Source of the DNA: an uncultured Rickettsiales bacterium
GTDB taxonomy: Bacteria > Pseudomonadota > Alphaproteobacteria > Rickettsiales > CANDYO01
Assembly: GCA_964356785.1 (NCBI GenBank)
Contig: CAYHIS010000003.1
Location: 51,323-115,322 of the forward strand
Direction: 5' to 3'
Length of the DNA: 64,000 bases
Shown: in pieces, positions 29,134-34,428 of the stretch
How positions within the stretch are numbered: position 1 is the stretch's first letter
How the letters are laid out: each line of letters starts with the position of its first letter
The notes under the pieces: model-generated
Told to the model about the DNA's origin: nothing
The model's database searches: none
What the model saw: the letters and a program-made list of their open reading frames with translations, nothing else
Position numbers and translations under genes: made by a program

Positions 29134-30540
29134 ATGAAAAAACTAAAAATTCTCTATCTATTATCATTATTAATCTCTAATACTGCATTTTCAACCACTC
29201 TTTCTGAGTCTTTGGTTAGTGCGTATCAGAATAATCCAGAATTAATAGCTGCCAGAGAACAGTTAAAAATGCAAGATGAACAAATTTTTGAAGCTATTGC
29301 AGGTTTTTTACCTCAAATTGGTTATGAAGCCATAAAAAGATACTCAAAAACTGACACTGCATCATCAACAACTGCGCAACAAGAAGGCAACACAACTAAA
29401 TATGTAACTCAAACCACCAAAACCGCTCCTTGGACACATAGCAAATCAAAACAATCTTCTCTTAATATTCAACAGAATATTTTTAAAGGAGGGCAAAGCC
29501 TTATGGCTATTCAAATAGCGAAGTATAATATTGAGTCAGGGAGAGCCCAATTATTAAGTACTGAGCAAAAAATATTCGTACAAACCATTCAAGCTTATCT
29601 CAGCGTGATACAAACTAAAGAAGTTATAGAAGTAAATAAACAAAACGTAAAATTCTATGAACAAAAATATGAATCCGTTGTTCAAGAGGTTGAAGCCGGT
29701 ATTAAAAAACGATCTGACTTAGCCACTGCAAAAGCTTCAAAATCCAATGCCCAAACCTTACTTGCAAAAGCTACAGGAGAATATGACACGGCTTTAGCAA
29801 CTTATAATAAAGTTGTTGGAATTCCAGCCGATAACTTAACTGAAGATAAATTCTTAAGTTCATTACCCGCAAACCAACTTGAGTTTCTACAAAAATCATT
29901 AAAGGATAACCCTGATCTTTTGAATGTATTATATCAACAAAAATCGGCAGATATTGCTGTTTTATCAAATGCCGCTATTATGCTACCTACCGTAAATATA
30001 GGTGGAACCCTTGACAGAAGCTGGGCTAAAACAACAGGACTATCAACCACAACAAACCCACCAACATCTAATTCAAAAACTGTATATGTAAGCGTTAATG
30101 TTCCAATATATCAAGGTGGTATGGAATATTCTGGAATTAGAAAGGCTAATGCACAAGCAGCTAGTTTAAAATATTATGTTAAAAATGCAAAAGCTACAGT
30201 TACACAAAACACAACACAAGCTTGGTCTGCTTATATAGTTAATCAAGAATCAGTAAAAACTGCCAATGAAGCAGTGAATGCCGCTCAAATTGCCGTGGAT
30301 GGAACCCAAGAAGAATATAGAGAAGGTGTAAATACTCTTTCAAATCTTATTACAGCTCAAGAAAATCTCTATCATTATCAATTATCATTAATCAATGCTG
30401 AACAAGAATTAGAGTTAAGTAAATATAATATTATATCTATCATGGGAAGGCTTAATGCAAAAGACCTTGCGTTGCCCACAAAGATATACAGTGTAACTAA
30501 GAATTATAATAAGATTAAGATGAAGCTAATTGGGTTATAA
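29134..30540 (+). CDS. tolC: TolC-family outer-membrane channel
   Basis: Signal peptide, 'LSESLVSAYQNNPELIAAREQL' and two OEP repeats over 468 aa. Confidence 0.88.
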   Translation: MKKLKILYLLSLLISNTAFSTTLSESLVSAYQNNPELIAAREQLKMQDEQIFEAIAGFLPQIGYEAIKRYSKTDTASSTTAQQEGNTTKYVTQTTKTAPWTHSKSKQSSLNIQQNIFKGGQSLMAIQIAKYNIESGRAQLLSTEQKIFVQTIQAYLSVIQTKEVIEVNKQNVKFYEQKYESVVQEVEAGIKKRSDLATAKASKSNAQTLLAKATGEYDTALATYNKVVGIPADNLTEDKFLSSLPANQLEFLQKSLKDNPDLLNVLYQQKSADIAVLSNAAIMLPTVNIGGTLDRSWAKTTGLSTTTNPPTSNSKTVYVSVNVPIYQGGMEYSGIRKANAQAASLKYYVKNAKATVTQNTTQAWSAYIVNQESVKTANEAVNAAQIAVDGTQEEYREGVNTLSNLITAQENLYHYQLSLINAEQELELSKYNIISIMGRLNAKDLALPTKIYSVTKNYNKIKMKLIGL

Positions 30541-30541
30541 C

Positions 30542-31036
30542 ATGAGTTACGCAAGCCAGAATAATTCACTTCAATCTACTTTAAGAACTATTAAAGATCT
30601 TATGGATGCCCCACAGAGAGCTGAGTTTGATGAGATACTCGAACTTACAGAAGATGATCTGGTAGATGAAGAAGATGAGGATGCTTTCTTAAATGAAAGA
30701 CACAAGACTCAAGATACAGAAAATCTTTTAGCCATTAACGAAATATTAACTCAAATACCCCATCCTTTAGTTAACAAAACAGAAGAAAATGGTTCTTCTG
30801 CTGAGGATGCTGCTAGATCAATAGAGACTATAAAAAAGCTAATTAAAAAGGTTGAAGAGCCTATGGTTGGCTTAAATAATCTCAGCAAAAAAGCAACCAC
30901 AGAAGAAATCGCTGCTGAAATTTTAAAACCGCTTTTGAAAGACTGGGTTAATAATAATTTACCTTCCCTTGTGGAAGAAATTGTTAGAAAGGAAATAAAA
31001 AAGCAAATTACTTGGAGAACAAGAAAGGATGATTAA
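30542..31036 (+). CDS. popZ: PopZ/DUF2497-family pole-organizing protein homologue
   Basis: N-terminal 'LQSTLRTIKDLM', 'ILELTEDD' and an acidic linker. The C-terminal 'EEIAAEILKPLLKDWVNNNLPSLVEEIVRKEIKK' parallels Caulobacter PopZ 'ELLRPLLKEWLDQNLPRIVE' (from memory). Confidence 0.75.
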   Translation: MSYASQNNSLQSTLRTIKDLMDAPQRAEFDEILELTEDDLVDEEDEDAFLNERHKTQDTENLLAINEILTQIPHPLVNKTEENGSSAEDAARSIETIKKLIKKVEEPMVGLNNLSKKATTEEIAAEILKPLLKDWVNNNLPSLVEEIVRKEIKKQITWRTRKDD

Positions 31037-33568: not shown

Positions 33569-33588
33569 CAATTAATTGAGGAAAAATC

Positions 33589-34428
33589 ATGAGATTTATT
33601 AATAAAGCAGCAAAAACCATTACTAATGCAACAAACCAAGCAGCAAACCAACTTGATAATGATTGGGGTATGTTTAAAAAAGCTCTTGAATCTAACAATA
33701 ATAACACACTAATAGAAGCAATTAATCCAACTGGATTGAAAGACAAGGTTAGTGAAAGCAAAGAGCGCAAAGGACAAAATGCATTAATGTATTTAATAAC
33801 TACAATGAATGATACAGAACATAATAATTTAAATTTAGAAAACAACTTAGAAATCATAGGCAAATTAAAAGGTCAAGTTAATGAAGTTAATGAAAAAGAT
33901 GGAAAAACAGCTTTGATGTATGCTGCTGACATGGGAGTTGTAACCGGTGGTAATGAGACAACTACAGAAGTTATAAATACATTAGTCCAAAATGGAGCAG
34001 ACCTCAATCAAGTTAATAAAAAAGATGGAATGACAGCTTTGATGTATGCAGCTAAGGCAGGGCATTATGACGGGGTTAGGGCTTTAATTGCTAATGGTGC
34101 AGATCCTGAACTAAAAGGAAAAGATGGGAAAACAGCACTAGAAACAGCTAAAGATAATTTATCACCTGATGATTTTAAAAGAGTAAAAATAGCCTTCGAA
34201 GATGCGCAAGCTGAATTAGGCGCGCAAATAAGAGCTGACCGTGCAAATAGAATGAAGAATTTTTTAAGCGGAAATATCAAAGATGCTTTTAATTCTGAAA
34301 CAAGAAATAAATTAAGAGAAAAACAAAAGGCAATTGGTCAAAACATAAGAGATGTAGATTCTACTGTGCAATCTTTTATTCCTAATTTGATTTATGGAAA
34401 TAAAAAGAATACAAATAATACTAGATAG
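33589..34428 (+). CDS. ankyrin-repeat protein (no signal peptide, basic C-terminal tail)
   Basis: 'GQNALMY', 'DGKTALMYAADMG' and 'DGMTALMYAAKAGHYDGVRALIANGADPELKGKDGKTALE'. Ends '...GNKKNTNNTR'. Confidence 0.85.
   Translation: MRFINKAAKTITNATNQAANQLDNDWGMFKKALESNNNNTLIEAINPTGLKDKVSESKERKGQNALMYLITTMNDTEHNNLNLENNLEIIGKLKGQVNEVNEKDGKTALMYAADMGVVTGGNETTTEVINTLVQNGADLNQVNKKDGMTALMYAAKAGHYDGVRALIANGADPELKGKDGKTALETAKDNLSPDDFKRVKIAFEDAQAELGAQIRADRANRMKNFLSGNIKDAFNSETRNKLREKQKAIGQNIRDVDSTVQSFIPNLIYGNKKNTNNTR

Follow-up and report, generated by a model that had tools for sequence, protein, structure and literature searches.

The canonical layout of the rvh type IV secretion system (T4SS) in Rickettsiales is the cluster virB8-9-10-11-virD4, which is found in exactly this form in Megaira (L009 and L017). 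Here, we describe a virD4 gene of the same orthologous type (NF010472) in a 64-kb stretch of DNA (hereafter, the window) from an uncultured Rickettsiales bacterium known from a groundwater metagenome. In contrast to the canonical cluster, this gene follows an ankyrin-repeat gene, not virB11, and is the fourth member of a same-strand array, tolC–popZ–ank1–virD4–ank2; in a close relative (L003), virD4 and the virB8-11 genes converge. The first four genes of the array form a block that is conserved in one clade of uncultured Rickettsiales, and we propose, with a probability of roughly 70%, that an old tolC–popZ–ankyrin unit captured virD4 in the ancestor of that clade.

Dispersal of rvh genes has precedents, and the T4SS of Rickettsia is said to have been recognized as fragmented by Gillespie et al. 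in 2009. Its components are scattered, some of them in operons with non-T4SS genes (PMC12803143), and the array resembles that layout in that T4SS genes are spread over several loci and placed in mixed operons. It differs in that the virD4 of Rickettsia stays in a subset of T4SS genes with rvhB7-11, predicted to be split over four operons (PMC12803143). A description of a virD4 gene joined to a tolC operon was not found in the searchable literature, and the array is a new arrangement within an already fragmented rvh T4SS layout.

Two further systems resemble the upstream part of the array. The first is the tolC-headed string of Rickettsia that contains the gene for RARP-1, an ankyrin-repeat protein reportedly first described as a TolC-secreted effector. 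The rarp-1 gene is predicted to belong to an operon headed by tolC (Sanderlin preprint, bioRxiv 10.1101/2022.02.23.481736); in R. typhi, tolC is RT0216 (PMC10225607) and RARP-1 is RT0218 (bioRxiv 10.1101/2022.02.23.481736), and the corresponding string in R. parkeri is MC1_RS01570–MC1_RS01585. As in the window, this is a same-strand string that starts with tolC and ends in an ankyrin gene, with (in R. typhi) one gene between the two, but in Rickettsia no virD4 follows. The second is the alphaproteobacterial pcm–tolC–popZ–valS neighborhood, represented here by the free-living Kordiimonas (L089; pcm–tolC–DUF2497…valS), in which a DUF2497/PopZ gene also directly follows tolC, but neither an ankyrin gene nor virD4 comes after popZ.

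The array and its virD4 gene

The array and its borders comprise the following features:

29134-30540, + strand: tolC, TolC-family outer-membrane channel; first gene of the conserved block
30542-31036, + strand: popZ (DUF2497), ATG start 1 nucleotide (nt) after tolC; alternative TTG start upstream at 30530
31029-31811, + strand: ank1, predicted RARP-1-like protein (Sec signal, then a linker, then ankyrin repeats at the C terminus); 8-nt overlap with popZ
31826-33568, + strand: virD4, rvhD4-type T4SS coupling ATPase; starts 14 nt after ank1
33589-34428, + strand: ank2, predicted cytoplasmic ankyrin-repeat protein, lineage-specific; candidate effector outside the conserved block
29065-29133, + strand: pstB–tolC spacer, 69 nt; probable promoter region of the block
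34426-34459, no strand assigned: stem-loop between the convergent ank2 and an open reading frame (ORF) at 34479-35093 (- strand); probable 3' end of the transcription unit

The list of ORFs and direct reading of the junctions (+1, -8, +14, and +20 nt, in gene order) confirmed the five same-strand genes that an original prediction, made from the letters of the window, had delineated. Only its "ATGA overlap" between popZ and ank1 had to be corrected, as these genes share 8 nt, ATGATTAA, not the 4-nt ATGA. An assembly artifact could be excluded, since independently made assemblies of this organism (L001 and L002), as well as eight other genomes or contigs, show the same order. Co-directionality alone, however, is weak evidence, because the same-strand run far exceeds five genes: between 18528 and 34428, every ORF of at least 120 amino acids (aa) is on the + strand, except for a 136-aa ORF at 25713-26123 (- strand) that overlaps the ntrY/ntrX junction. 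The order in this 16-kb run is nifU, hscB, ruvC, eno, ctaG, coxC, FMN reductase, ntrY, ntrX, HAD, DUF2155, pstB, and the array, mostly with very short junctions.

The product of virD4 matched the rickettsial chromosomal VirD4 equivalog model NF010472 with 988.8 bits (cut-off, 728) and PF02534 with an E value of 4e-153, whereas TraG/TraD models scored at most 314 bits. Inspection of the translation revealed Walker A (APTGSGKG) and Walker B (LFMLDEF) motifs as well as N-terminal hydrophobic segments at approximately residues 14 to 36 and 86 to 102, and identity to the Rickettsiales VirD4 proteins recovered in our scan was 53 to 78%. Residues 1 to 105 (window positions 31826-32150) include a predicted periplasmic loop with a W/F/Y-rich signature that is kept within the block-bearing clade, and this loop is several residues longer than in neighboring Rickettsiaceae-like VirD4 proteins.

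The TolC protein contains two stretches of Pfam OEP (PF02321; E = 7e-57), belongs to the TolC subfamily according to TIGR01844 (229.3 bits; cut-off, 225.15), and starts with a signal peptide, MKKLKILYLLSLLISNTAFS. Its orthologs, 43 to 63% identical, head the same block in the relatives described below. The product of popZ carries the C-terminal oligomerization domain (DUF2497, PF10691; 61.4 bits against a gathering score of 27) but scored 57.6 bits with the NCBIfam model PopZ_fam, under its curated cut-off of 125. It could be aligned with the PopZ-like protein of Kordiimonas (itself matching DUF2497 with 76 bits) over an N-terminal helix, an acidic linker, and the C-terminal domain, and it shows a conserved N-terminal L-x-S/T-I-R/K helix and an acidic stretch, ELTEDDLVDEEDED, in the places of the client helix and linker; judged by these profile matches, it is a divergent member of the PopZ family. 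Rfam and tRNA scans of the region yielded nothing.

As had been stated in the original prediction, no virB structural gene accompanies virD4. In the window, which spans ~32 kb upstream and ~30 kb downstream of virD4, blastp revealed no homolog of VirB8, VirB9, VirB10, or VirB11, and neither Pfam scan nor annotation identified any T4SS component besides virD4 among ORFs of at least 120 aa, a scope above the size of VirB2, VirB3, and VirB7. Nor were virB genes that would have turned the locus into an ordinary cluster present in the adjoining sequence (~8 kb on the left and ~2.7 kb on the right). Within the window, virD4 is therefore not linked to virB8-11, a linkage that is the typical context of such a gene but not a requirement for membership. 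Taken by itself, the lack of another T4SS gene would fit a decaying orphan or a coupling protein from a conjugative or Rickettsiales amplified genetic element (RAGE)-type system, rather than a component of the rvh system. We consider such an origin extremely improbable, since the ORF is full length with intact Walker motifs, the scores clearly separate it from TraG/TraD, identity within the clade is 70 to 76%, and the neighbors are housekeeping genes, without integrase, tra, or transposase genes among them. VirD4 thus looks intact and would presumably still serve an rvh T4SS that is encoded elsewhere in the genome.

A four-gene block kept in one clade

The order tolC–DUF2497–ankyrin gene with signal peptide–virD4 was found in nine genomes or contigs: the window, L003 and L004 (both from a survey of VirD4 loci), L083, L084/85, L086/87, and L088 (via homologs of ank1 and TolC; L088 is a 1.55-Mb circular contig), and the metagenome contigs L094 and L095. 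In the metagenome scan with the ankyrin profile, 3 of 80 loci held true family members, most of the others being generic ankyrin genes retrieved via a second pattern. The closest relatives are L003, the best match in the VirD4 survey (76% identity), and L094 (likewise ~76%). While the block proteins have diverged to 43 to 76% identity, no junction of the block is kept more tightly than ank1|virD4, with gaps of 14, -4, 24, 5, 5, 5, and 3 nt in the seven genomes measured, and the single interruption seen anywhere in the block is a 4HBT-type thioesterase gene between tolC and popZ in L004 (8060-8467). The flanks, in contrast, have no gene in common in 18 of 21 locus pairs, and two more pairs share a single paralog-like match, leaving the pair L003–L086 as the only one with real (upstream) synteny, whereas the block genes are common to all pairs. 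In both L003 (5711-7081) and L086 (4561-5925), a second TolC paralog is located in tandem directly upstream of the block tolC.

Synteny in related genomes therefore bears out the arrangement singled out in the window, with the ank1–virD4 junction being conserved across one clade. In a VirD4 neighbor-joining tree, the block-bearing genomes form one group, which nests among metagenome-assembled genomes (MAGs) labeled Rickettsiaceae and Megaira-like genomes that keep virB8-9-10-11-virD4. A single tree group, combined with the conserved block, suggests that virD4 was captured once and that the arrangement was then strongly retained.

Which part of the block is older could be read from two outgroups. 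In an intracellular outgroup (L090; an ATP/ADP translocase gene is located nearby), we found the order tolC–DUF2497–ankyrin gene (272 aa)–trmD–rplS, without virD4; the ankyrin protein here, too, carries a signal peptide. Its TolC is 34% identical to the window TolC, and its ankyrin protein matches ank1 with 35% identity (E = 5e-18) and shares a motif ahead of the repeats, N-x-HLPPVYFKSYY in the ank1 family and N-x-LPxVYF-S in what is common to L090, that generic ankyrin proteins lack. The presence of the trio without virD4 in L090 indicates that the trio is ancestral and virD4 an addition, and the adjacency of tolC and DUF2497 in Kordiimonas indicates that the tolC–popZ pairing even predates host association. 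In summary, tolC–popZ–ank1 is the older unit and virD4 the newcomer. The presence of popZ, which the original prediction had linked to a hypothetical polar deployment of VirD4, is accounted for by ancestry and does not argue for a partnership between PopZ and VirD4.

To what extent the separation of virD4 from virB8-11 is unusual was assessed in the VirD4 survey, which sampled one genome per species and returned 80 VirD4 loci, 73 of them with enough upstream sequence; loci were classified with Pfam-confirmed VirB8-11 queries from a Megaira-like locus. In 46 of these 73 informative Rickettsiales-like loci, virB11 lies directly upstream of virD4, while in the other 27 (~37%), including Deianiraea-like lineages and several others, it does not. 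The notion that virD4 closes a virB8-9-10-11-D4 cluster thus describes most loci but is no rule; the detachment of the window virD4 was itself confirmed but, as 27 of 73 loci imply repeated detachment, is not remarkable by itself. The other orphan virD4 genes are preceded, at gaps of 57 to 460 nt, by unrelated genes (a FadL-type porin, RecO, a LysM-M23 peptidase, ArgG, and unknowns). A MAG labeled Hyphomicrobiales (L050) contains a split virD4 (ORFs 9986-10396 and 10443-11768), which may reflect a frameshift, pseudogenization, or misassembly.

In L003, virB11-virB10-virB9-virB8 (11966-16070, - strand) is positioned tail to tail directly after virD4, on the opposite strand; L086, despite its upstream synteny with L003, does not contain virB8-11 at that place. 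A single inversion does not explain the L003 layout, since at least two breakpoint events are required to place virD4 and virB11 tail to tail and to give virD4 its new partner upstream. The adjacency may have survived from the original break or may have arisen secondarily. A similar convergent virB layout, ~2 kb downstream, was observed in a distant lineage (L068).

Transcription and retention of the block

A terminator scan of 9 kb yielded no terminator-like site in any of the four junctions, in agreement with the original prediction that no obvious terminator separates the five genes; its eight hits were all intragenic, a number close to the 4.3 ± 2.3 expected from shuffled sequence. No promoter-like site was found in any junction either, and promoter-like hexamers were as frequent as expected for such AT-rich DNA (45 found, 46 expected). 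Upstream of the block, the pstB–tolC spacer is the only sizeable gap, and two weak sigma-70-like matches at this spacer (29058-29086 and 29073-29101) each agree in 9 of 12 positions, no better than chance. Because the gene 5' of tolC varies among the relatives (except in the L003/L086 pair), the block probably has its own promoter. In R. parkeri, the 247 bp upstream of tolC drive expression of rarp-1 (Sanderlin preprint, bioRxiv 10.1101/2022.02.23.481736). At the other end, the only intergenic stem-loop, at 34426-34459, immediately follows ank2; its 12-nt arms are 92% complementary and separated by 10 nt, and its folding energy of -12.6 kcal/mol is lower than that of shuffled sequences (-5.7 ± 2.0; z = -3.4), but with no U-run after it on the + strand, it is not a canonical intrinsic terminator.

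Co-transcription of virD4 with the genes upstream of it is the natural and most likely reading of such tight spacing. With 3 to 24 nt, or a 4-nt overlap, in front of virD4, a separate promoter would not fit, and the gene is most likely transcribed as part of the tolC operon. The suggestion of the original prediction that the coupling ATPase is co-transcribed with its neighbors is favored by the tight joins, which are conserved across the clade at ank1|virD4. We propose that, in the ancestor of the clade, virD4 lost its place next to virB8-9-10-11 and became attached to the 3' end of the tolC–popZ–ankyrin unit. Being the final conserved gene of an operon headed by tolC, it would be read through from the tolC promoter and possibly be translationally coupled. 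Any later rearrangement cutting virD4 off would then silence an essential part of the T4SS, a dependence that would be sufficient to keep the four genes together amid reshuffled flanks.

Alternatively, the adjacency might be an accident of shuffling in a compact genome, with internal promoters serving the individual genes and with an order that has no consequence. The same-strand run described above, in which unrelated genes are just as tightly spaced, and the ubiquity of promoter-like hexamers in this AT-rich DNA would be compatible with that. Nevertheless, we regard it as unlikely, given that the order of the four genes has been kept in nine genomes or contigs at 43 to 76% identity while the flanks are mostly unshared, and that gaps of 3 to 5 nt or overlaps leave no room for intergenic regulation.

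Several observations weigh against the capture of virD4 by an old unit with a RARP-1-like gene as proposed here. A weak, terminator-like hairpin with a T-run, within what chance would produce, is located inside ank1 (31676-31696), ~130 nt before virD4, and spacing and conservation are the two lines that argue for co-transcription. The VirD4 neighbor-joining tree is a crude one, and any remaining T4SS genes of this genome would lie outside the sequence covered (the window with ~8 kb to its left and ~2.7 kb to its right). As for the link to Rickettsia, no Rickettsia-labeled protein was present among the 120 listed of 277 matches to the ank1 profile, and an exhaustive search of representatives was dominated by giant multirepeat ankyrin proteins and was uninformative on RARP-1 homology. 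In Rickettsia, it is presumably a DUF2497 gene that separates tolC from rarp-1.

The ankyrin proteins and the secretion system

The ank1 product (260 aa) starts with MIKKISSFFLLLIGIISLNQTVNA|EAP, in which the n-, h-, and c-regions of a Sec signal can be recognized and no cysteine is present, in accordance with the signal peptide noted in the original prediction. In an AlphaFold2 model, a helix (residues 5 to 17) is followed by a disordered region (18 to 54), a long helix (55 to 99), and an ankyrin domain (131 to 258) modeled with a predicted local distance difference test (pLDDT) score of >90; pLDDT was <50 at residues 23 to 47, four repeats were well modeled, and Pfam ankyrin hits cover residues 169 to 249. 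A Foldseek search of the PDB with this model returned only generic, DARPin-like matches.

In both architecture and position, ank1 corresponds to RARP-1, in which a 23-aa Sec signal precedes a disordered middle part and C-terminal ankyrin repeats (bioRxiv 10.1101/2022.02.23.481736). The signal of ank1 is of similar length (~24 aa) and is likewise followed by a nonglobular middle part and C-terminal repeats, and ank1, like rarp-1 in R. typhi, is the second gene after tolC in its string; RARP-1 itself is longer, at 573 to 586 aa, and contains a much longer disordered region. Position and architecture thus suggest that the two may be orthologous. A search with the single ank1 sequence retrieved only the environmental family and generic ankyrin proteins, and no Rickettsia TolC was among the listed matches of a TolC homolog search. 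One other candidate relative of RARP-1 was rejected: the ankyrin gene of a Rickettsiaceae MAG with a canonical cluster (L010, 2668-3813), located directly upstream of virB8, reached 83 bits with the ank1 profile, but its 381-aa product is a generic multiankyrin protein without a signal peptide. It is possibly an effector gene attached to a T4SS operon.

Most likely, then, ank1 encodes a Sec-exported, RARP-1-like protein of the periplasm and not a T4SS substrate, which would explain a signal peptide that is odd for such a substrate. This bears on the initial idea that VirD4 is deployed at the pole through PopZ and that the two ankyrin genes flanking virD4 encode dedicated substrates deployed with it. 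Ankyrin proteins are indeed common T4SS effectors in Rickettsiales, the gene joins are tight, and ank2 lacks a signal peptide and ends in a slightly basic C terminus. Nonetheless, the idea is now highly improbable: ank1 has a classical Sec signal and a likely counterpart in Rickettsia that is periplasmic, and belongs to an older unit that occurs without virD4 (L090), the tolC–popZ adjacency is ancestral and also present in free-living bacteria, and ank2 is strain-specific.

Indeed, no homolog of ank2 was found in the contig sequence examined from other clade members. In four relatives, the same-strand gene after virD4 is either an unrelated ORFan without a Pfam match (L083, L086, and L088) or rpsD (L094), and in the others the next gene is convergent. 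The slot after virD4 is variable, and ank2 was added there recently, as a strain-specific gene outside the conserved block. With Pfam ankyrin hits and no hydrophobic N terminus, it combines a eukaryote-like domain with the absence of a Sec signal, as is looked for in effectors, and it may encode a T4SS substrate, although its matches to Legionella Ank models were all subthreshold. Of the earlier description of ank2 as lacking a signal peptide and having a basic tail, the first part was correct, whereas the tail is only mildly basic (net charge of just +2 over the last 30 residues). The last residues of ank2, …GNKKNTNNTR (34400-34428), resemble those of the unrelated protein encoded after virD4 in L088 (14428-15723; …RNRRKTNNIGR), either through a shared C-terminal secretion signal or by chance.

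The ank2 gene also opens a small stretch of effector-like or eukaryote-like genes (34479-37094), with another such gene further downstream:

34479-35093, - strand: acidic, D/E-rich ORF; effector-like
35268-35777: OTU-like cysteine protease; effector-like
35841-37094: GT90 glycosyltransferase with a signal-like N terminus
46976-48496: YopJ-family acetyltransferase, further downstream; effector-like

Other genes of a host-interaction type in the window encode a CAP59-like mannosyltransferase (347-1408, - strand), an ADP-ribosylglycohydrolase (5667-6929, - strand), a second GT90 copy that is 43% identical to the first (9882-11093, + strand), and a 786-aa pentapeptide-repeat protein (16100-18460, - strand).

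Whether the capture of virD4 also reflects a link at the protein level is a separate question. Under such a link, the RARP-1-like protein, and perhaps also PopZ and TolC, would be partners of the T4SS, and making them together with VirD4 would ensure stoichiometric or colocalized synthesis, for instance, for polar assembly or for regulation of the VirB9/VirB10 core. In R. parkeri, RARP-1 is periplasmic and coimmunoprecipitates RvhB9 and RvhB10, and the authors suggested a possible role in regulating the assembly of the T4SS or a possible recruitment of RARP-1 to the poles (bioRxiv 10.1101/2022.02.23.481736). The tightness of the ank1|virD4 junction (-4 to +24 nt in seven genomes), the virB8-11 genes adjoining the block in L003, and the clade-specific signature in the periplasmic loop of VirD4 would be in line with this. 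On the other hand, operon hitchhiking explains the conservation without any link between the proteins, the trio is older than its association with virD4 and lies far from T4SS genes in L090, and other orphan virD4 genes simply follow unrelated genes. Judged by locus tags, RT0216-0218 of R. typhi are also far from the virB/D4 cluster, which is presumably near RT028x. On balance, such a functional module is possible but doubtful.

We tentatively speculate that the joining of virD4 to a rarp-1-like gene signals that periplasmic ankyrin proteins of the RARP-1 type are true accessory components of the rvh T4SS, acting, for example, via the VirB9/VirB10 core, and that the operon would coordinate synthesis of envelope, pole, and secretion gate. 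If that were true, RARP-1 would gain a function after a decade of conflicting reports. A RARP-1-like gene that is joined to virD4 throughout a clade, with virB8-11 as neighbors in one member, is independent comparative evidence in the same direction as the R. parkeri pulldown. For annotation, our findings are a warning that an ankyrin gene beside a T4SS gene is not automatically an effector gene. They also correct the textbook picture in two respects: virD4 is often found apart from virB8-11 in environmental Rickettsiales (~37% of the species sampled), and the string of tolC, popZ, and an ankyrin gene is old and predates the classical pathogens. The main value of the locus lies in the comparative support that it may lend to a connection between RARP-1 and the T4SS and in the correction of the view that virD4 always closes the virB8-11 cluster.

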